From an uncultured Bacilli bacterium (GTDB lineage: Bacteria; Bacillota_I; Bacilli_A; RF39; UBA660), in assembly GCA_910585045.1 (NCBI GenBank), contig CAJUCD010000006.1:12580-76579 (forward strand): a stretch of DNA of 64,000 bases, in the 5' to 3' direction. Positions within the stretch are counted from its first letter, which is position 1, and each line of letters begins with the position of its first letter. Position numbers and translations under genes: made by a program. This document shows positions 22,867 to 46,530 of the stretch, in pieces. Below the pieces are notes generated by a model, which did not search any database, had not been told where the DNA came from, and was given only the letters and a program-made list of their open reading frames with translations.

Positions 22867-22916
22867 ATTCTCACCTTTATAAGTATAGCAAAAAAAAAAG
22901 AAGTTCACAATAAATG

Positions 22917-23352: not shown

Positions 23353-24078
23353 ATGGGGAATAGATATATTAGTATAGAGTTAAATTTTTTAGATAAAGAA
23401 GCATTTTATAGTTTATTTAAAACAATTTCTGGAATTACTGAAGAACAAAAAAGAGAAATTGTAGATAGTTTATTTCAGGCTTTAGATATTTCAAGACGAA
23501 ATAGATTAGTAAGATATCGAAATGGAGAATTTACTGCTAAGTCAGAAAGTGGTAATAAAGCTCGAAGTGATCAACAAATATTGCAAAAACAATATTTAAG
23601 AGAGATAAAAAAAATTTATGATGGTTATAGTTTTTATGATGCATTTTTAGATTTTCCAGAAGTTAGTATTTATAGGAAAAAGCTTATTATTGATAGTATT
23701 TTGGCTAAATTGTCAGATGAGCAAAGGGATAATGTAATTAGAGCTTTAAAAAAGGAAATTTTAATAAAAGATGTACCAAGTTTAAGAGCTATTTTAAGAA
23801 GGGTTAAAAGTCAATATGAATCTTTAATAAAAAGAAATTTATATGGAAGAAATATTTATAATATTTTACCAGATATAAATGGTATAGGTAATGAAAAGAA
23901 AATGGAGATAGCAGATAAATTGTTTTCTAGATTCTCTTTAGAAAGACAAGAAAATATGTTAAGGCTTTTAGCTTTAGAGATTAATTCTAGTAGTGAAAGT
24001 GGTCATATGGCCTATCAAGATTTGGATATTTATAAAAGGCAATATAATAGATATATAGAAGATAGAATAGTTGGTTGA
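23353..24078 (+). CDS. hypothetical helical protein
   Basis: Long ORF, no recognisable motifs; transcribed divergently from rpsT. Confidence 0.4.
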   Translation: MGNRYISIELNFLDKEAFYSLFKTISGITEEQKREIVDSLFQALDISRRNRLVRYRNGEFTAKSESGNKARSDQQILQKQYLREIKKIYDGYSFYDAFLDFPEVSIYRKKLIIDSILAKLSDEQRDNVIRALKKEILIKDVPSLRAILRRVKSQYESLIKRNLYGRNIYNILPDINGIGNEKKMEIADKLFSRFSLERQENMLRLLALEINSSSESGHMAYQDLDIYKRQYNRYIEDRIVG

Positions 24079-33943: not shown

Positions 33944-34492
33944 ATGAATTTATATATTAGTGGTAGTAATAGAAAACATAATAGTTATAATTTTTTAAAT
34001 AGAATTAAAAATGTAGATGATATTTTGATTTCTTTAGGGGACTTGAATATTAAATATTGTGGTGGATGTAATGATTGCGCTAAGAATGAATTTAATAAGT
34101 GTATTTTAAAAGATGACATGGATAAAATTTATAAAGCAATAAGCGAATGTAATAAAATCATTGTTATGAGCCCAATTTATATGAATCAAATAACAGGGAT
34201 TTTAAAAAATGTGATAGATAGATTTAATCCATATTGTTCTAGTGAAAAATTAAAGAATAAAAAGCTGTTTTTAATTACAGTTGGACAGATGAGTGAAGAA
34301 GAACAAGCTGAAGTAGTTAATGATATAAATAATTATTTTGAAGGTATAAGCGAATTTCTTTATTTTGATTTTGAATATTTATATAACTTTAGTAGTGGTG
34401 ATATATTAGAATTAGATGATATAAATAAGACGTATAAAGAAGAAGACTTAAATAGTATTATTAATGAAATAAAAAGTAAAATTAATGATTAA
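33944..34492 (+). CDS. iron-sulfur flavoprotein (Isf-like) / flavodoxin-fold FMN reductase
   Basis: Flavodoxin-like N-terminus and compact CGGCNDC-x7-C cluster; GGAGG RBS. Confidence 0.45.
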   Translation: MNLYISGSNRKHNSYNFLNRIKNVDDILISLGDLNIKYCGGCNDCAKNEFNKCILKDDMDKIYKAISECNKIIVMSPIYMNQITGILKNVIDRFNPYCSSEKLKNKKLFLITVGQMSEEEQAEVVNDINNYFEGISEFLYFDFEYLYNFSSGDILELDDINKTYKEEDLNSIINEIKSKIND

Positions 34493-34506
34493 TTTAGGAT
34501 GGTAAT

Positions 34507-35097
34507 ATGAACTATGTATATACAGAAAAAGATTTAGCATTAATATCATGGGAATTAATAGATAAATTTATTGATAAATTATATGATGATATTATTAATT
34601 ATTTAAAAAAAGAGAATTTAGTAATTAAATATATAGTGCCAATTATGAGAGGTGGAGGTGTACCAGCTATTAAGTTGTCACATATGTTTAATGTAATAGA
34701 TATGTTGCCAATACAGTTAAAATATAATCATGAAACTTGTAATGTAGATTTGAAGATAGACTTAGATAACTATCAAGTTGATAAATTGAATGATAAAGAG
34801 TGTATTTTACTTATAGAAGGAAATCATGTTACAGGAAAGACTGCTAATATCGCTGCTTCGCAAATTCGGCATAAATTTGGTGATAATGTGAAAATAATAT
34901 ATATTTCTTTAACTAGAGATTATACTTATAGGAACAGTGTTCAAGGAGTTTGTTATACAACTTGGGCTATGACTACTAATGAAACTAAGCAATTAACTGT
35001 TGAAGAATGCAATAAATTAAATATTGATTATAATTTGGTTTCGGTATATCCTTGGGAAAATAATCAAGAAGAATTAAAAGAATTAAAAGCAGAATAA
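34507..35097 (+). CDS. phosphoribosyltransferase-like protein
   Basis: PRTase-like PRPP loop ILLIEGNHVTGKTA and RGGGVPA loop. Confidence 0.4.
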   Translation: MNYVYTEKDLALISWELIDKFIDKLYDDIINYLKKENLVIKYIVPIMRGGGVPAIKLSHMFNVIDMLPIQLKYNHETCNVDLKIDLDNYQVDKLNDKECILLIEGNHVTGKTANIAASQIRHKFGDNVKIIYISLTRDYTYRNSVQGVCYTTWAMTTNETKQLTVEECNKLNIDYNLVSVYPWENNQEELKELKAE

Positions 35098-35170
35098 ATA
35101 ATATGTAAAGTCCTTATTGATAGGGCTTTTTCTTATACTTATTTGATGTATAATTATGTTAGAGGTAATT

Positions 35171-36535
35171 ATGAGAAGTAGTATTAAATTAAGTGAAAAA
35201 GGGAAAAAATTTTTTACCAGTTTATTAATTTTAGTAATGGTTATTTTTTTAGCTATTTGTAATACTCCTAAAAAAGATTATAAACATGAAATTTTAGAAG
35301 GAGATAATTATAGTTTAAAAATTGATTATCCAGATATTAAAAATAAATTAATAGCTAAAGAGGCAATAAGTTTTATTGATGATAGAAAAAAAGAATTTAT
35401 TAACAGTATAAAAGATTTGGAGAAAAAAGAATCAAAATATGATTTTTCAGTTACATATAATTTAAGTAGTTATAATAATATAGATGTTCTTCATTTGCTT
35501 ATTTTTTCTTATACAGGTGGAGCACATTATATAAGAGAAGATAAGTCTTATTATTATAATAATCAAACAGGTAAAGAATTAACTTTGAATGATTTATTAG
35601 CTAGTGATGATAGTTTGTCTAAATTATCAAATTTGGCTTATTATTATGTAATGGAATATAGTCATAATAATAGTTTAAATTTATCAGAAGAAATGGTTAG
35701 AGAAGGGACAGAAGCTAAGTTAGATAATTTTTTACATTTTACATTTATTCAGGAAGGTTTAGAAATTTTATTTCCACCGTATCATGTAGCAGCATGGGCT
35801 TATGGTGAGATTAAAATAATTATTCCTTATAATGAATTAAGAGAAGTGATAAAAGAGGAGTATATTATACCTCATGGAAATAATAATGAAGAAACAATAA
35901 ATCCTAAAGTGCGTTCTTTGGATGAATTTCAAGGAAAAAAATTAATTGCTTTTACTTTTGATGATGGTCCTGCTTTAAAATCAACAAATAAACTTTTGGA
36001 TAATTTAGATAAATATAATGCAAGAGTGACTTTTTTTGTGTTAGGTAGTCGGGTTAATCAGTATAAAGATACTCTTAAAAAAGCTTATTTACAAGGAAAT
36101 CAAATAGGTAGTCATACTTATAGTCATCTTAATTTATTGAAATTAAATGATTATGATATTATAAGAGAGATTAAAAATACTAATAAAGTTATTAAAGATA
36201 TTATAGGAGTTGAACCTACTTTACTTAGACCTCCTTATGGTAATATTAATAAAGAAATAAAGAGCTTAGCGGATATGTATACAATTTTATGGGATATAGA
36301 TACAGAAGATTGGAAGTTAAAAGATAAGAATAAAATAGCGGAGAATATTGTTAAATATGCTCATGATGGAGCAATTGTTTTATTACATGATTTGTATGAT
36401 ACTTCAATTGAAGGAGCTTTATTGGCAATGGAACAGCTGATTAAAGAAGATTATGCTTTTGTGACTATTGAAGAAATGATAAAATTAAAAAATATAAATT
36501 TAGATAAAGAAAAATCTTATTTTAGTATTAAATAA
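35171..36535 (+). CDS. polysaccharide deacetylase with N-terminal DUF3298/DUF4163 (RsiV-like) domain
   Basis: N-terminal TM; C-terminal NodB-type motifs FTFDDGP, HTYSH, LLRPPYG. Confidence 0.6.
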   Translation: MRSSIKLSEKGKKFFTSLLILVMVIFLAICNTPKKDYKHEILEGDNYSLKIDYPDIKNKLIAKEAISFIDDRKKEFINSIKDLEKKESKYDFSVTYNLSSYNNIDVLHLLIFSYTGGAHYIREDKSYYYNNQTGKELTLNDLLASDDSLSKLSNLAYYYVMEYSHNNSLNLSEEMVREGTEAKLDNFLHFTFIQEGLEILFPPYHVAAWAYGEIKIIIPYNELREVIKEEYIIPHGNNNEETINPKVRSLDEFQGKKLIAFTFDDGPALKSTNKLLDNLDKYNARVTFFVLGSRVNQYKDTLKKAYLQGNQIGSHTYSHLNLLKLNDYDIIREIKNTNKVIKDIIGVEPTLLRPPYGNINKEIKSLADMYTILWDIDTEDWKLKDKNKIAENIVKYAHDGAIVLLHDLYDTSIEGALLAMEQLIKEDYAFVTIEEMIKLKNINLDKEKSYFSIK

Positions 36536-36633
36536 TAAAATGTTGTTTATAATAATGGTAAACTGATGTAAAGCACAATTGATTTAAAGTTAGTATTGTG
36601 ATATTATATTTGATAGTAAAGGAGTAGAGAAAT

Positions 36634-37041
36634 ATGCCTAAGGAATTAGTAGCTATGCAAATGAAATTTTTAGAATCTCATATAGGAGATGAAGGCGTTT
36701 GTATTTATTATGAAAAAGGAGAACGTAAGGAAATAAAAGGCCCTATTAAATTAGTTGAACCTTTTGATAGAATTGTAATTGGTACATATTCGTTACCATT
36801 TGTAGGCGCTTCTATAATTATTGAACAGGTAGCGGCTAATGGGTCTAGTGTTTATTATTATTCTGGAGCTAAAGATTATATTCAACTTTTTGAAACTGAT
36901 CATTATGGACTTGTTATGGCTCAAAAGGAAATATTGGGTTATAGTGTTAAAGATGTTTCTATGAATGCTTCGTACAATGAGGCTTCTGAAGATCAAAAAC
37001 CACAGTCAATTCCTGGTGGTAGAGGTTACCATAAATTTTAG
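36634..37041 (+). CDS. hypothetical protein (135 aa)
   Basis: ORF with AGGAG RBS. Confidence 0.4.
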   Translation: MPKELVAMQMKFLESHIGDEGVCIYYEKGERKEIKGPIKLVEPFDRIVIGTYSLPFVGASIIIEQVAANGSSVYYYSGAKDYIQLFETDHYGLVMAQKEILGYSVKDVSMNASYNEASEDQKPQSIPGGRGYHKF

Positions 37042-37359
37042 AAATATATAACACATATATTTATGTATTTGGACATGATTAATATCATGTCTTTTTTAAT
37101 TAAGTTTTAATAATAAAGCGTTTTTTATATTAAATGTTAGTAAAAAATAAATGCAATATTTAATAAAAAAATTTTATTAATAATAACAAACAAACGAATT
37201 GCTTACTGTGAAATTAGTTTGCTAATATTTATTTATAGGTCAAGGGTTTTAGTAAATATTGACGTACTCTTGATTTAAAATAAATAATAAATTAAAGAAT
37301 TAAATGCAAGTTTTAAAAAGGGGCATTTAATTCTTGAAGTAATAAGTTTTTTTTAAAAT

Positions 37360-37388
37360 TTGACAAGGGGGGGGGGTTATGTTATAAT
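37360..37388 (+). promoter_or_regulatory. consensus sigma-A promoter with a G10 homopolymer in the spacer (candidate slipped-strand phase-variation switch)
   Basis: TTGACA (37360-37365), 17-nt spacer aGGGGGGGGGGttatgt, TATAAT (37383-37388); G10 at 37367-37376 in a ~27% GC genome. Confidence 0.6.
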
Positions 37389-37416
37389 GTTGGCATAAAA
37401 AAAGGGGTAATGGTTG

Positions 37417-38397
37417 ATGAATAATAAGGGGTTATTATATTCAAATACAAATTTTTCGGAGATTCCGAGAAATGATATTTTAGATTTTTTAAATTTGATT
37501 TCAAAGTTTGAAATACCTTATAGAGATAGTTTAAATCTTCCTAGTTCAGCGTCTTTTGGTGTTGAAATAGAATATGAAGGTATGGATAAAGCAAAAGCTG
37601 ATAAGTTTGTTAATATTCTTGGTGGTTGGGAATCTACTATAGATTCTACTTTGGAGTCTGGTGGAGAGATTGTTTCTTCAAGATTATCTGATGAGAAAAG
37701 AGTATGGCAAGATTTATATTTGATTTGTGAACTTTTAAAATGTAATGATGCAAAGACAGATAAAAATGCAGGATTACATGTTAGCGTAGGGACACATTTA
37801 TTAGGTAGAGATTACCATTCATGGGAACTATTAGCTAAAATATATATGCTTTATGAAAGAGTTTTAGTAAGATTTGCTAAAGGCGATAAACATAGAATGC
37901 GTGATACTTTTATATATTTTGCTAGACCATTAGGGTTGAAAATGCTACAACAACGTAATTTATTAGAAAAAAGAAGATTAGGAAGTATAAAAAGCTTTTT
38001 GGAAGATTATGAAGAAAATAAAAAAGGTGCTATTAATTTTAGAAGTTTAGATTTTTCTCGTGCTATGAGTCCATATAATACTTTTGAATTGCGTTTATTT
38101 AATTCTACTACTGATAATTGCGTTATTCAAAATGATGTAAATGCAACATTAAAAATGACATTAGCAGCGGCTAATAAATCTGTTGATAGTGATTTATTGA
38201 GTGAGAGATTAGATAGATTAGAAGCTCAAAAACTTACAGGTCAGGAATATTTGCATCAGTGTAATAATGTATTATTAAGAGATGCTTTTGAGTTCGTTGA
38301 TTTGATTTTTGATAACGATTTAGATAAAGTGTGTTTTTTAAAGCAATATTTAGGAGATTCTAGTCTTGTTACAATGGCATCAGGGAGAAGTGCCTAA
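37417..38397 (+). CDS. putative amidoligase (Amidoligase_2/PF12224-like, GS/GCS-fold)
   Basis: N-terminal FGVEIEYEG block; conserved neighbourhood with an AIG2/GGCT gene described for this family in Firmicutes; stop overlaps the next start. Confidence 0.45.
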   Translation: MNNKGLLYSNTNFSEIPRNDILDFLNLISKFEIPYRDSLNLPSSASFGVEIEYEGMDKAKADKFVNILGGWESTIDSTLESGGEIVSSRLSDEKRVWQDLYLICELLKCNDAKTDKNAGLHVSVGTHLLGRDYHSWELLAKIYMLYERVLVRFAKGDKHRMRDTFIYFARPLGLKMLQQRNLLEKRRLGSIKSFLEDYEENKKGAINFRSLDFSRAMSPYNTFELRLFNSTTDNCVIQNDVNATLKMTLAAANKSVDSDLLSERLDRLEAQKLTGQEYLHQCNNVLLRDAFEFVDLIFDNDLDKVCFLKQYLGDSSLVTMASGRSA

Positions 38398-38861
38398 TGA
38401 ATGATAAGAAATATTATTTAGCTTATGGTAGTAATCTAAATTTATTAAGAAATAGATGTCCATATATTGAATATGTAGGAGCAACTGTTTTAGATGGGTA
38501 TGCTTTAGCTTTTAGAGGTTCTTGTGATAATTATGCATATCTTACAATCGAACCTCAAAAAGATGGAATTGTTCCAGTAGGTATTTTTAAGATTAGTAGG
38601 GAAGAAGAGCAAGCTTTAGATTATTATGAAGGGTTTCCATTATTATATGGTAAAGTATATATGCCTATAACTATTGCTGGTGAAGATATAGAAGCATTAA
38701 TATATGTTATGAATAGAAGGTATAGTTATCACATTCCTTCACAAGACTATTTTGTTGAATGCTTGCGTGGATATATGCATTTTAAATTTGATTTAACATT
38801 ATTGTCAGAAGCTTTTAGAAGGTCTAGTGATAATAGAGGTCTTATAAGAATAAAAAAATAA
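38397..38861 (+). CDS. AIG2/gamma-glutamyl cyclotransferase-like protein
   Basis: YLAYGSNLN N-terminal motif, catalytic-Glu region DYYEGFP; 154 aa. Confidence 0.65.
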   Translation: MNDKKYYLAYGSNLNLLRNRCPYIEYVGATVLDGYALAFRGSCDNYAYLTIEPQKDGIVPVGIFKISREEEQALDYYEGFPLLYGKVYMPITIAGEDIEALIYVMNRRYSYHIPSQDYFVECLRGYMHFKFDLTLLSEAFRRSSDNRGLIRIKK

Positions 38862-38873
38862 CACTTTAAGGTG

Positions 38874-39035
38874 TTATTTTTCAATTGTTCTAGCTTCTCT
38901 AGCACTGATTCTAACTTTATTTCCATTAATAGTCTTTTTTTGAATATTAGGTTTTTGTTTTGTTTTTGTTGCGTTTAGTGCATGACTTCTTTTGTTACCT
39001 GATAAAGGTTTCTTTGTTGTAACTTTCTTTGCCAT
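38874..39035 (-). CDS. rpmB: 50S ribosomal protein L28
   Basis: Manual translation (53 aa): MAKKVTTKKPLSGNKRSHALNATKTKQKPNIQKKTINGNKVRISAREARTIEK, with the L28 core GN.RSHALNAT; below the ORF-track size cutoff. Confidence 0.8.
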   Translation of the reverse strand: MAKKVTTKKPLSGNKRSHALNATKTKQKPNIQKKTINGNKVRISAREARTIEK

Positions 39036-39141
39036 TTCGCCACCTCCAAAATTTGTTTACTTATAAAACTTTACCATAATAAGAGGGAAAAGTCAATTTA
39101 ATTATATGAGTTTATTAATATAATATGGAGAAAAATAAAAT

Positions 39142-39170
39142 TTGACTTGTAGTTTTTACCGTGATATAAT
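39142..39170 (+). promoter_or_regulatory. sigma-A promoter for the 39197 gene
   Basis: TTGACT, 17-nt spacer, TGaTATAAT; followed by an AAAGGAGGGG RBS. Confidence 0.5.
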
Positions 39171-39196
39171 ACATTTCGCCAAAAAGGAGGGGTATA

Positions 39197-39475
39197 ATGA
39201 GTTCAAGTCAAAAATCAATTGAAGAAAGAATTAGTTATTTAATTGCAACTATGAGAGGAACAACAATATTATATGAAACTTGGTTTAAAGGAGTTATGTT
39301 ATGTAGAGATTCTTTAAAAAGTGGAATTGATAGTGAATTAATTAAAAGTTTTATTGATGCTTTATTAGCTGTTAATGTTGATGTAAAAAATGCAGCTGAA
39401 AATGCTTCTCATAAGTGTTTAAAAGATACTTTATCAGCTATAGGTAGTAATTCAAATGTAATAGGAAGAACCTAA
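39197..39475 (+). CDS. hypothetical protein (92 aa)
   Basis: Strong promoter and RBS; no recognisable motifs. Confidence 0.45.
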   Translation: MSSSQKSIEERISYLIATMRGTTILYETWFKGVMLCRDSLKSGIDSELIKSFIDALLAVNVDVKNAAENASHKCLKDTLSAIGSNSNVIGRT

Positions 39476-39542
39476 ATTATTAGATTCTTTTTTTGTTATA
39501 AAAATTAATTTCTTAGAATACAATTTTTTAGGAGATGATTAG

Positions 39543-40289
39543 ATGAATTGTAAAATACCATTTACAAAAGATATTGACTTTGAAAAAAAACTGTATGAGA
39601 TAACTAGTATTAGCTTAGAGCATGAGATTAAAGTGGAAGATGGAAATTTAAAAGGAAATTTTATAGTTTCAGGAGATTTTAAAAGTCATGAGGTTAGTGT
39701 TAATAAAGAGGCTTTTTCTTATATTTTACCTTTTGAAATAGAAATTGCTGATGATATTGATGTAGATACAATTGAATTTATGATTGAAGATTTTACATAT
39801 GAGATCGTAGAAAGTAATATTCTTAGAGTAAATATTGATTTTAATGTTATTGCTAGTAAAAAAGAAATAGAAGAAGAAGTTGTTGAAGAAGAAACAGTAT
39901 TTAGAGATGCAAGTGAATTATTTGAAACTGAAGAAAATCTGGAAAAGGATTTAATAGAACAAGAGCCAGAAATATTAGAGACTTTAGAAGTAGATTCAGA
40001 TAAGGAAGAAAATTTAATAGTAGAAGAAAATCTAGAAAGAGATGAAAAAATTGTAGAAATTAGAGAAGATACTAATATTATTAAAGAGAGTGAAAATACA
40101 ATTATTAGTAGTGTTCAAGGTGTAGATGATGAATATACTACATATCACATTCATATGGTAAGTGATGGTGAATCTGTAGAAACTATTTGTACAATGTATA
40201 ATTCGAATATGAGTATTTTAGCTGAATATAATGATTTAAATAACATTGCTCAAGGAGATAAATTAATTATTCCTGATAAAAATGAATAA
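39543..40289 (+). CDS. acidic protein with C-terminal LysM domain (SpoVID-like spore-coat morphogenetic protein candidate)
   Basis: Glu-rich repeats (EENLEKD, EENLERDE) and C-terminal LysM (YTTYHIHMVSDGESVETICTMYNSNMSILAEYNDLNNIAQGDKLIIP); followed by a CotS-like gene as in spoVID-ysxE. Confidence 0.4.
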   Translation: MNCKIPFTKDIDFEKKLYEITSISLEHEIKVEDGNLKGNFIVSGDFKSHEVSVNKEAFSYILPFEIEIADDIDVDTIEFMIEDFTYEIVESNILRVNIDFNVIASKKEIEEEVVEEETVFRDASELFETEENLEKDLIEQEPEILETLEVDSDKEENLIVEENLERDEKIVEIREDTNIIKESENTIISSVQGVDDEYTTYHIHMVSDGESVETICTMYNSNMSILAEYNDLNNIAQGDKLIIPDKNE

Positions 40290-41172
40290 TGCACTAGAAG
40301 AAATAAAAGGTACTTATAAGCCATATCGTATAACAAAGAAGAAAAATGTGACAATTATAGATTCAACAAGTGGTTCTTATGTGATAAAAGAAAAAAAAGA
40401 TAATAAAATAAATAAAGCTTATAGTTATTTAATTAGTCGTAGTTTTGATTATTTTCCTGAATTGCAAGGGGAAATGCGAAGTGATGTGAATGTATTTCAA
40501 TATGTAGAAGAAGTTAATATGCCAGTTGAACAAAAAGCTTTAGATATGATGGAATTAGTAGCACTTCTTCATAATAAAACTACTTATTATAAGGAAATAA
40601 CTGAGGATAAGTATAAAGAGATATATGATAATTTGAAAAATAATATTATTTATACTAAAAATTATTATGATAATATGTATAATATTTTAATAGAAGAAAC
40701 TTATATGAGTCCTAGTCATTATTTATTTATGCGAAATATTTATAAAGTTTTTGCAGCTTTAGACTATACGTTAAATGAACTTGATGTTTGGTATGATAGT
40801 ACTAAAGATGATTTAAAAGAAAGAGTTGCTTTTATTCATAATAATTTAGAAGTTGAACATTTTATAAAAAATAAAAAGGGATATTTGGTTAGTTGGGAAA
40901 AATCAAAGATCGATTCGCCAATATTAGATTTAATTACTTTTTATCAAAAAGAATATATGAATTTTGATTTTGAATCGTTATTTCGTAAATATTTAAAAAA
41001 TTATCCTTTAAAGGATAATGAGCAAAAATTATTGTTTATTGTAATAAGTATTCCACCATTAATTAATTTAGAAGGTAAAGAAATGAATGTTACAAGAGAT
41101 ATTAGAAAAAAATTAGACTATATTTTTAAGACTGAGAATTTAATTAAAAATCTTAGCAGCGAGGGTATATAA
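40282..41172 (+). CDS. CotS/YsxE-family spore-coat protein-like (kinase-like fold)
   Basis: Size, composition and synteny with the LysM protein; overlapping start. Confidence 0.35.
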   Translation: MNNALEEIKGTYKPYRITKKKNVTIIDSTSGSYVIKEKKDNKINKAYSYLISRSFDYFPELQGEMRSDVNVFQYVEEVNMPVEQKALDMMELVALLHNKTTYYKEITEDKYKEIYDNLKNNIIYTKNYYDNMYNILIEETYMSPSHYLFMRNIYKVFAALDYTLNELDVWYDSTKDDLKERVAFIHNNLEVEHFIKNKKGYLVSWEKSKIDSPILDLITFYQKEYMNFDFESLFRKYLKNYPLKDNEQKLLFIVISIPPLINLEGKEMNVTRDIRKKLDYIFKTENLIKNLSSEGI

Positions 41173-41583
41173 TGCGAAACATTAAATAAAATAATAAAAA
41201 TACTTCTATTAAAAGAATAAAAAGATTAAATCTTAATGGAATTATAAGCGTTATAATTATTTGATAGAAGATAAGTATTGATAAACAAAATATAGCTAGG
41301 ATAGTAAATAATCCGCCACCACAATTTCTATTTGGACACATTTTAATCACCTAGTTTATTTTATGCAAGTTTTGTTTTAGTGTATAAATTAACGCCTAGT
41401 TATGTAATAAATGTTAATTTGGCAAAAATTGTCGAACGAATTTTGTTGACTATTACTCTCAGTAAATATAAAATTAAAGTGTACAGAGAAAAATCTGTAT
41501 AGAAGAGCACTTGATCGATTTCCAAACTCTCTTTTGGCTTTATGCCCTCGTGGTCAAGTGCTCTTTTTGTTTTGAGGTTAATA

Positions 41584-41823
41584 ATGGATATAGATGAAGT
41601 TTATAATATCATAGGAAAGAATATTAGATTTTATAGAATGAATAATTTAAAATATGGATACTTATCTCAGGAAAGTTTATCAAGAATATGTATGGTTAGT
41701 ATAAGTATAATTAGAAATATGGAAGCTAAAAGAAAGAATAATATTATAAATTTAGTAGCAATTAATAATATAGCTAAAGCGTTAGATGTTCCTTTGTATA
41801 AATTTTTTTTGAAAGATAGTTAA
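41584..41823 (+). CDS. small XRE-family HTH protein
   Basis: HTH-like IGKNIRFYRMNNLKYGYLSQESLSRICMVSISIIRNME; GAGG RBS; the ORF-track start at 41542 lies inside an upstream hairpin. Confidence 0.5.
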   Translation: MDIDEVYNIIGKNIRFYRMNNLKYGYLSQESLSRICMVSISIIRNMEAKRKNNIINLVAINNIAKALDVPLYKFFLKDS

Positions 41824-41892
41824 ATCATTGTAAATAGGTTTACATAATTTGATAATTGTTTTATAAAGCTTTTATGTGGTATAATAGACTAG

Positions 41893-42738
41893 GTGAATCA
41901 TATGAAAGAAGAGTACTTTGTTAATATTGCTATTAGTAGAGCAATAGAATTATATTTATCAAGTTCTAAAAATAAAGATAGTATTCTTTATAATTCTTTC
42001 TTAGTGGTTACAGTACGAATTTTAGCTTTTATTTATGGTGAACTAGATGTTTTAAATCCATATTATTTGAATAATAGTGTTGCTTTTTTTAATAATTTAG
42101 CGAAGTATGGAATGAGTAGAGCAGATATTGCAATTTTTAAAGAAGAGTTTTTAAATTATTATAAATTTGAAGAAGAAAATAATAATGGTAAAATTAAGTT
42201 TAAAAATCCTTATTTTAAAAATGTTTTAAAGTATTTAGTAGATATGTTTATTTTTAAAAGAAATAGTGTTGAAGTAACTTATCAAGAAGAAGAAATGTTT
42301 TTAGATCTGGCTTATACAAGTCATACTAAGAATCCATATAGAGTTTCATATAATTATTTAGCTAGTGAAAATCCACAATATATAGAGAAGTATTATTATT
42401 CTAAAGTTAATCAATTTGATGTTACTAGTGATTTATCAAAGACTATTAGTACTAATCTTAATTTAGAAGCTTTAAAATATGTGGGAGTAGATTTGTCTAG
42501 TCTTAAAAATATGAGTAAAGATGAAATAGAGAATGCTAAAAATGAGGCTTATAATTATTTTATGGTAGATGCTACTAGTCCAAGTAGAGATGATGATTTG
42601 GAATCAGCAATAAATAATTTTAAGAACTATGGTAAAAAAGTTACAACTGGAAATGGATATGTGGATATTTTATTACTGATGAGTGTTATTGTAACCTCAT
42701 TTAGTGTAATAGCAATTATTATTTTTAGTTTAGCTTAA
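41893..42738 (+). CDS. hypothetical tail-anchored protein (C-terminal TM)
   Basis: Soluble helical domain followed by C-terminal TM LLLMSVIVTSFSVIAIIIFSLA. Confidence 0.4.
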   Translation: MNHMKEEYFVNIAISRAIELYLSSSKNKDSILYNSFLVVTVRILAFIYGELDVLNPYYLNNSVAFFNNLAKYGMSRADIAIFKEEFLNYYKFEEENNNGKIKFKNPYFKNVLKYLVDMFIFKRNSVEVTYQEEEMFLDLAYTSHTKNPYRVSYNYLASENPQYIEKYYYSKVNQFDVTSDLSKTISTNLNLEALKYVGVDLSSLKNMSKDEIENAKNEAYNYFMVDATSPSRDDDLESAINNFKNYGKKVTTGNGYVDILLLMSVIVTSFSVIAIIIFSLA

Positions 42739-45945: not shown

Positions 45946-46173
45946 AGGCACTGTCTTAATTAATAAGACTATTTAAGTATAATATGTTTTTTTTAGTTTT
46001 GCAAGTGTTTTTATGATAATTTTTAATTTTTATGGATATTTTACTGGTAAATAGGGAATATAATATAATATGGAGCTAAAAAATAGTTGTTTTAGAATGT
46101 AGAATTTAAAAACTTGTTGACATGTTATTTTATATTATGTTATAATTCAATTGTTAACGAGAAAAAAGTTCTT

Positions 46174-46266
46174 GGAGGAATACCCAAGTCTGGCTGAAGG
46201 GACCGGTCTTGAAAACCGGGAGGTCGAGCAATCGGCGCAGGGGTTCGAATCCCTTTTCCTCCGCCA
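46174..46266 (+). tRNA. tRNA-Ser (anticodon TGA), long variable arm
   Basis: Acceptor ggaggaa/ttcctcc, anticodon stem ccggt/accgg with loop ctTGAaa, T-loop ttcgaat, CCA. Confidence 0.85.
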
Positions 46267-46288
46267 CTTTAAGTGTTAGCATGTATAT

Positions 46289-46365
<77 letters not shown>

Positions 46366-46370
46366 ATTGT

Positions 46371-46447
46371 GGTTCGTTAGTCTAGAGGCCTATGACGTCT
46401 GCCTGTCACGCAGAAGATCACGGGTTCGAATCCCGTACGAACCGCCA
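46371..46447 (+). tRNA. tRNA-Asp (anticodon GTC)
   Basis: Anticodon arm tctgc-ctGTCac-gcaga, T-loop ttcgaat, CCA. Confidence 0.9.
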
Positions 46448-46454
46448 TTTTTTT

Positions 46455-46530
<76 letters not shown>

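Follow-up and report, generated by a model that had tools for sequence, protein, structure and literature searches.

The window, a stretch of 64,000 nucleotides from an uncultured and very AT-rich Bacilli bacterium of the mouse gut, contains a two-gene operon for a predicted amidoligase and a predicted gamma-glutamyl cyclotransferase (GGCT). A run of ten G residues lies in the spacer of the very strong predicted promoter of this operon, outside any gene (Table 1). The length of the run differs among assemblies of the species, and the sections below consider what this variation may mean for expression of the two genes.

The operon and its promoter

The promoter at 37360-37388 scores 12/12 in a consensus promoter scan, has an extended -10 element, and is the top site within positions 34000-42000. 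An earlier note on this DNA had described a perfect TTGACA-N17-TATAAT promoter with a G10 spacer, which stood out in an AT-rich genome and preceded the gene pair, and reading of the sequence confirms all of these points. The GC content of the window is about 22-32%, and that of the genome is about 26%. The G10 tract is the only run of G or C longer than five in the 64 kb, while 0.0017 would be expected from base composition (17.4% G). The locus therefore has the structure of a simple sequence repeat (SSR) in a promoter spacer, that is, a homopolymer of at least about 8 nt between a recognizable -35 and -10, here TTGACA and TGnTATAAT.

One other perfect promoter (TTGACA-N16-18-TATAAT) is found in the 64 kb, at 46117-46145, and it also has a 17-nt spacer and the TG extension. 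Four clustered tRNA genes (46174-46527) directly follow it, suggesting that perfect promoters mark very highly expressed units in this genome. The A/T tract that precedes the -35 of the operon resembles an UP element and may act as one. It has the same length in all assemblies, with one single nucleotide polymorphism (SNP), an A>T change at 37355 in L005.

The stop codon of the amidoligase gene and the start codon of the cyclotransferase gene overlap by one base (TAATG). The terminator that follows the second gene is shared with the convergent rpmB gene, and another terminator-like hairpin lies upstream of the operon, 3' of a 135-aa open reading frame (ORF) called here orf135. The promoter, the hairpins, and the overlapping genes suggest that the transcription unit consists of the promoter, the two genes, and the terminator. 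Two other forms of control were considered and rejected. A riboswitch or leader control was set aside because the leader has only about 20 nt, and Rfam gave no match near the operon in the window. A switch of coding frame was discarded because the tract lies between genes and is crossed only by a spurious 40-aa ORF on the minus strand.

Table 1. Positions of the operon, its promoter elements, and adjacent features in the window
Feature	Position	Strand	Basis
orf135, 135 aa, without Pfam match	36634-37041		
Terminator-like hairpin, 3' of orf135	37071-37092		
Stretch deleted in natural allele L130 (76 nt); A/T tract, -35, and G tract lost	37304-37379	+	Alignment
A/T tract T8 A4 T, directly 5' of the -35	37347-37359	+	Sequence read; resembles UP element
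-35 hexamer TTGACA	37360-37365	+	Sequence read and promoter scan
Spacer, 17 nt: A + G10 + TTATGT	37366-37382	+	Sequence read
G10 homopolymer, hypermutable element in promoter spacer	37367-37376	+	Sequence read and assembly comparison
Extended -10, TG-T-TATAAT (TG 37380-37381, TATAAT 37383-37388)	37380-37388	+	Sequence read and promoter scan
Ribosome binding site AAAGGGG in short leader (about 20 nt)	37401-37407	+	Sequence read; transcription start predicted
Amidoligase gene, 326 aa, PF12224 Amidoligase_2	ATG 37417 (or TTG 37414) to 38397	+	Pfam and predicted fold
Gamma-glutamyl cyclotransferase gene, 154 aa, PF06094	38397-38861	+	Pfam and predicted fold
Hairpin terminator, 12-bp stem, flanked by A and U runs	38854-38881	.	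RNA fold -10.5 kcal/mol, z = -3.7 versus shuffles
rpmB	38874-39035	-	PF00830

Tract length and promoter conservation

The length of the G tract varies among assemblies of the species. The proteins of the locus were found exactly on hundreds of contigs in ENA, Logan, JGI, and NCBI. Look-up of the window proteins and close sequence variants gave 25 independent contigs with a complete tract, from SPAdes, MEGAHIT, Logan, JGI, and NCBI metagenome-assembled genome (MAG) pipelines. Scans of a metagenome contig collection for the promoter pattern, with a variable gap or as a fixed 36-mer, gave no match, the species lying outside that collection. The modal length is G10, found in 14 of the 25 contigs. 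G9 and G11 are found in four contigs each, G8 in two, and G12 in one, so that the observed spacers range from 15 nt (G8) to 19 nt (G12).

The variation is concentrated in the tract. In the 2.2-kb operon region, an alignment of 21 sequences has 11 SNP columns, and its indels are confined to the G tract. Over 6.2 kb, seven aligned sequences have a single indel outside the tract, an in-frame change of 3 nt in an acidic repeat protein. This indel is at 40035 in a LysM/acidic-repeat ORF (39543-40289), which encodes 249 aa in L003 and 248 aa in the other strains. The length polymorphism of the tract is thus far above the background indel rate among close genomes. Different lengths also occur on the same genetic background. 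Three groups with identical SNP haplotypes have mixed lengths (G9/G10/G11, G9/G10/G12, and G8/G9), and a single haplotype from runs with neighboring accession numbers (SRR298557xx) has G9, G10, and G11. This shows that changes in length are recurrent, with at least about seven independent events. The earlier note had proposed looking for length heterogeneity, and at the level of population consensus the assemblies provide it.

Several controls are available for these lengths. At other places in the window, intergenic A10 (at 22890-22899) and A9 runs are constant in six assemblies, including those with G11 and G12, and the T8 and A7 runs beside the tract never vary. The promoter of the closest sister species, which has no tract, is identical in five Logan assemblies. 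These controls make an assembly artefact unlikely. Five contigs start or stop at the tract (L114, L115, L132, L135, and L146). Such breaks would be expected if the reads were heterogeneous there, and they may be indirect hints of variation within samples.

Besides the 25 contigs in which the tract is complete, there is a natural allele, L130 (GCA_948571445.1; L130:2360-2515), that has lost much of the promoter through a deletion with TTA microhomology at both ends (Table 1). The -10 is kept, TGTTATAAT is retained, and the coding sequences are intact. The existence of such an allele, without the -35 and the tract, shows that loss of the promoter is tolerated.

The promoter is conserved in related species, but without the G run. 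A scan of a genome collection with the amidoligase yielded 273 relatives in very AT-rich gut MAGs labeled Bacilli, Tenericutes, or Mycoplasma. The species itself is not included in that collection and the best match has 45% identity, so the scan is informative on relatives. Promoters were compared for the seven closest loci (L007-L012 and L027) and for a closer sister species (L137-L141), making eight related species. The -35, as (A)ATTTGACAA, is conserved in all eight (L007-L012, L027, and L137), and in all eight the spacer is AT-rich and fixed at 17 nt. TGn and a -10 are found at this distance in six of the seven scored orthologues from the genome collection and in L137, while L027 has the same 17-nt spacing but lacks TGn. 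The related species share the leader ATAAAAAAAGGGGTAATGG, and the leader end AAAAAGGGG is present in all eight promoters. The conservation of the -35, the spacing, the -10, and the leader indicates that the promoter is functional and under selection. As the relatives are fixed at an AT-rich 17-nt spacer, G10 corresponds to the ancestral optimal spacing, and the tract is a derived, hypermutable insert in one species.

Other long G runs are present in related AT-rich MAGs: L032:6873 (G9), L063:7516 (G9), L066:5138 (G8), L084:7573 (G10), and L008:3968 (G7). Several of the relatives' runs directly follow the start codons of very short ORFs. One is in the ribosome binding site region of the L008 amidoligase. 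Rfam had no match at these regions. It is possible that they are further contingency loci of the lineage.

The predicted enzymes and their relatives

The amidoligase belongs to family PF12224 according to both its sequence and its predicted fold. The match to PF12224 (E=3e-10, 40.8 bits against a gathering cutoff of 22) covers profile positions 73-243 of 245, and PF12224 had already been assigned to 22 of 24 homologues. The AlphaFold2 model has a predicted local distance difference test score (pLDDT) of 90. The top 40 Foldseek matches are mostly glutamine synthetases with modest template modeling (TM) scores of about 0.4, and one GCS2-type protein is among the matches. Residues invariant in 23 homologues are E50, E52, and E54 of an E-x-E-x-E strand, G82-G83-E84, H121, and E224 and R226 of an E-x-R motif. 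The protein thus has the glutamine-synthetase/GCS2-like fold and the conserved acidic, His, and Arg residues typical of the family. By analogy with glutamine synthetase, these residues may be metal, ATP, and substrate ligands.

The second protein matches PF06094 (E=8e-10, 39.7 bits against a gathering cutoff of 22.8) and the phage family phrog_2520 (E=2e-32), and its score for PF13772 (AIG2_2), 21.2 bits, is below the cutoff of 27. Its AlphaFold2 model (pLDDT 92) is most similar in the PDB to human GGCT (3cry/2rbh; TM 0.75, root mean square deviation 3.0). The next matches are Bacillus subtilis YkqA and, with TM scores of about 0.5, mouse and human GGACT. The better match to GGCT than to GGACT suggests that the fold is nearer to GGCT, which acts on gamma-glutamyl amino acids, than the Pfam name implies. 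The sequence YLAYGSNL, which includes Y10-G11-S12-N13-L14, is invariant in 38 homologues, as is E78. The protein therefore has the N-terminal YGS(N/L)L motif of the GGCT fold, and from its position relative to the motif E78 is the probable catalytic Glu. The earlier note had assigned the two proteins to the amidoligase and AIG2/GGCT families, and both assignments hold, with scores above the thresholds and predicted folds of the expected type.

Sequence searches of the PDB with both proteins gave chance matches alone (GFP biosensors and a designed TIM barrel), with no solved structure from the amidoligase family, and no biochemical characterization of a PF12224 member turned up in literature searches. 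The family is large, and a profile search with the amidoligase found 3783 cluster representatives. Relatives usually have a tandem array of two or three amidoligase paralogues, with products of about 285, 285, and 333 aa, and the cyclotransferase gene comes after it. The window retains one amidoligase, corresponding to the last and longest paralogue. In related MAGs the gene that matches the window amidoligase is usually the last of the tandem genes (for example in L013-L015, L021-L025, and L030-L037). In L048 and L049 two amidoligases are fused into a protein of 609 aa, and several small genomes have two separate amidoligase loci. The neighbors of the amidoligase arrays vary widely and include tRNA synthetases, an integrase, and Fic and RhuM proteins, suggesting that the arrays are an accessory cassette.

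The amidoligase and GGCT pair is widespread in gut Bacilli MAGs and Firmicutes phages, usually with two or three amidoligase paralogues. Among phages of gut Firmicutes, 44 records contain phrog_2520 proteins with 38-43% identity to the cyclotransferase. In the two records that were inspected, the GGCT gene is directly 3' of genes annotated as amidoligase enzyme, and the phage ligases have about 21% identity to the window amidoligase. A tblastn search of the phage records with the window amidoligase gave no match, and the link to phages is made through the GGCT alone. Some distant members of the family adjoin integrase or Fic/RhuM genes or lie in phages. The phage module consists of amidoligase, amidoligase, and GGCT (phrog_2443/7469 and phrog_2520) and is a moron with the same gene order, ligase or ligases and then GGCT. 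Examples are Terrisporobacter phage TPDSL_ph1, Clostridium clostridioforme LM41 prophages, and Heliusvirales gut phages. In contrast to the phage modules, the window pair is chromosomal and syntenic with rpmB, has one ligase rather than two or three, and has its own strong and variable promoter.

Published prophage modules and phage records agree with the statement in the earlier note that the pair is known from Firmicutes, and they place it in Firmicutes prophages as well. As cited in two prophage papers (PMC11253131 and PMC11318856), Iyer et al. 2009 predicted that the module builds or modifies peptides. Its ligases would add peptides to a target that may be the cell wall, and this may prevent superinfection. 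The same papers give cell-wall modification affecting phage adsorption or exclusion as the predicted role. The module is not mentioned in the Heliusvirales paper. The note had also stated that phase-variable control of such a pair was undescribed, and the literature search likewise found no paper tying an amidoligase to phase variation, the sole full-text co-occurrence being an unrelated survey.

The genes around the pair are a PdaC-type deacetylase and orf135 on one side and rpmB on the other, and this arrangement is syntenic in related species. A location in a prophage or mobile element was rejected for the window pair, as the neighbors are housekeeping genes in the same order among relatives. 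Synteny with rpmB is common to L007-L012, L027, and L137-L141, and the 135-aa ORF is nearby in most of them. The homologue of orf135 stays by the pair in relatives, upstream in the window and downstream in L008, L010, L012, and L027. Two motifs of this protein are conserved, FDRIVIG and, at the C terminus, GGRG(F/Y), and the domain is duplicated in L027. A homologue search with orf135 returned its own cluster alone. It could be a partner or substrate of the pair, or it could merely be syntenic.

Two other regions of the window differ among strains. The segment at 34507-35097, upstream of the PdaC-like deacetylase, differs by strain (the window compared with L003, L005, L094-L096, and L108), and the alternatives found there are a 196-aa phosphoribosyltransferase-like ORF and a 338-aa radical-SAM/SPASM protein. 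The ORF at 23353-24078 (plus strand, 241 aa) is disrupted differently among strains. An A/T run of 8 nt near 23614 has 7 nt in L126 and L127, which splits the ORF, while L128 has a 20-nt deletion (23638-23657) and L129 has a 330-aa version. The gene may be in decay, or it may represent a second variable locus.

Probable phase variation and its alternatives

The G tract is probably a simple-sequence contingency locus that causes promoter-spacer phase variation of the ligase/cyclotransferase operon, with a probability of roughly 0.7. The promoter is close to the ideal for the sigma-A type, and slipped-strand mispairing during replication would add or remove G residues in the stretch that separates its -35 from its extended -10, shifting the spacer between 15 nt (G8) and 19 nt (G12). 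Sigma-70 and sigma-A promoters work best with a spacer near 17 nt and lose activity gradually on either side. The G10 allele, with 17 nt, would be fully ON, because this is the spacing kept by all related species, while G9 and G11 would be intermediate and G8 and G12 low. The outcome would be heritable, reversible, population-level variation in transcription of the bicistronic operon. A TG-extended -10 and an upstream A/T tract can lessen the dependence on -35 spacing, and here they may soften the switch, making it a dimmer rather than an on/off control.

Several points weigh against phase variation of this kind. The extended -10 and the A/T tract may leave a small dynamic range for the effect of tract length. 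The lengths are assembly consensus values that differ between populations, poly-G is harder than poly-A for Illumina chemistry, and L118 and L119 are perhaps one sample. Both proteins look cytoplasmic and lie among housekeeping genes by rpmB, which makes them atypical phase-variable cargo. The amidoligase, the GGCT, and two flanking small ORFs had no match to NCBIfam models or to the known defense systems of PADLOC-DB 2.0 (E<=0.01). Finally, if the cyclotransferase broke the very bond that the ligase had made, the cycle would be futile unless there is a further step or a macromolecular acceptor.

The length differences might instead have arisen in sequencing or assembly at the poly-G, the real tract being fixed and no switching taking place. 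The data are indeed consensus assemblies, and the contig breaks at the tract could also result from low coverage or poly-G error. However, the differences reach 2 nt in either direction at the consensus level across several assemblers and sources, the A10 and A9 runs are resolved without variation in the same contigs, and the 21 sequences of the 2.2-kb region have no other indel. Taken with the identical sister-species promoters in the five Logan assemblies, these results make an artefact very unlikely.

A real but functionally neutral polymorphism is also unlikely. In this case the extended -10 and the A/T tract would carry transcription, and the lengths would reflect drift at a mutational hotspot. 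It is established that TGnTATAAT promoters can work with poor -35 contacts, and the L130 allele has intact genes without a -35. Yet the length distribution is centered on the length that restores the 17-nt spacing of the eight related species, and the -35 TTGACA is perfectly conserved across those species and thus under selection. In addition, a G10 run is very unlikely to arise and persist at about 26% GC without selection. It is hardly credible that the G run acts in some way other than spacing, such as a protein-binding site, a melting block, or a G-quadruplex formed with GGGG at 37321-37324 and 37404-37407. Those two GGGG runs do flank the promoter, and G-rich spacers can influence promoter kinetics, but the same promoter works in related species without any G run, and lengths from 8 to 12 would be hard to reconcile with a specific binding site.

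The most likely chemistry for the operon is that the ligase makes a gamma-glutamyl bond and the cyclotransferase resolves it. The amidoligase, as an ATP-dependent carboxylate-amine ligase, would attach a gamma-glutamyl group through an isopeptide bond, with an amino acid, a peptide, or an amine as acceptor. The cyclotransferase would then release 5-oxoproline and the free amine. In the gamma-glutamyl cycle (gamma-glutamylcysteine ligase and GGCT) and in butirosin biosynthesis (BtrJ and BtrG), an ATP-dependent ligase adds a gamma-glutamyl amide and an enzyme with the AIG2/GGCT fold removes it as 5-oxoproline. By analogy the window pair would carry out the same ligase-then-GGCT chemistry, and the match to the GGCT fold is computed. 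BtrJ differs in having the ATP-grasp fold, while the window amidoligase is glutamine-synthetase-like. As such a pair would be futile on a small molecule, a macromolecular or pathway-bound acceptor is more plausible, on which the gamma-glutamyl group would serve as a mark or a protecting group that can be taken off again. Stochastic control would fit a function that is useful in some conditions and costly in others. A cell that gambles on expression would gain a conditional benefit at a cost, as for envelope modification, phage exclusion, or immune evasion. A more specific proposal, possible but doubtful, is that the operon is a domesticated phage module adding a removable gamma-glutamyl or peptide mark to an envelope precursor or to a target seen by phage or host immunoglobulin A, under a poly-G switch that keeps both marked and unmarked cells in the population.

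The closest known systems, for which this mechanism is established, are porA of Neisseria meningitidis (poly-G) and fetA of Neisseria gonorrhoeae (poly-C), which have a homopolymer of about 8-14 nt in the promoter spacer, as here. According to a source that cites van der Ende 1995 and Carson 2000, strains differ in the length of the tract, and the spacing sets graded expression. In contrast to those Gram-negative pathogens, in which the cargo is an outer-membrane protein, the window locus belongs to a low-GC gut commensal, has a cytoplasmic enzyme pair as its cargo, and has a TG-extended -10, and its effect on expression is predicted by analogy. The poly-G tracts upstream of the Treponema pallidum tpr genes are another case, in which a homopolymer near or in the promoter modulates transcription in a small-genome bacterium. 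In Mycoplasma hyorhinis, the length of a poly-A tract modulates transcription from the vlp promoters. The tpr and vlp systems encode surface lipoproteins or antigens in multigene families, whereas the window has a single locus that encodes enzymes.

Most documented homopolymer switches come from pathogens that have many contingency loci, and in gut commensals most of the known phase variation involves invertible promoters. The mechanism proposed here is textbook, and the locus is a well-supported new example of it. What is new is the host, an uncultured gut Bacilli commensal, and the cargo, an uncharacterized amidoligase-GGCT module shared with gut phages. The locus is a clean, population-supported homopolymer case in a very AT-rich uncultured member of the mouse-gut Bacilli. 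The gene pair that it would control is common, as seen from the number of ligase cluster representatives and from the dozens of gut Firmicutes phages with the cyclotransferase. Existing metagenomes could be used to look for correlations of the natural allelic series from G8 to G12, together with the promoter deletion, with phage load, host state, or metabolites. If the proposed switch is correct, an uncultured gut Firmicute would provide a case in which an SSR causes phase variation of two enzymes of metabolism or modification. If the operon is in addition a domesticated module that keeps marked and unmarked cells, it would provide the first functional handle on a module of thousands of gut bacteria and phages.

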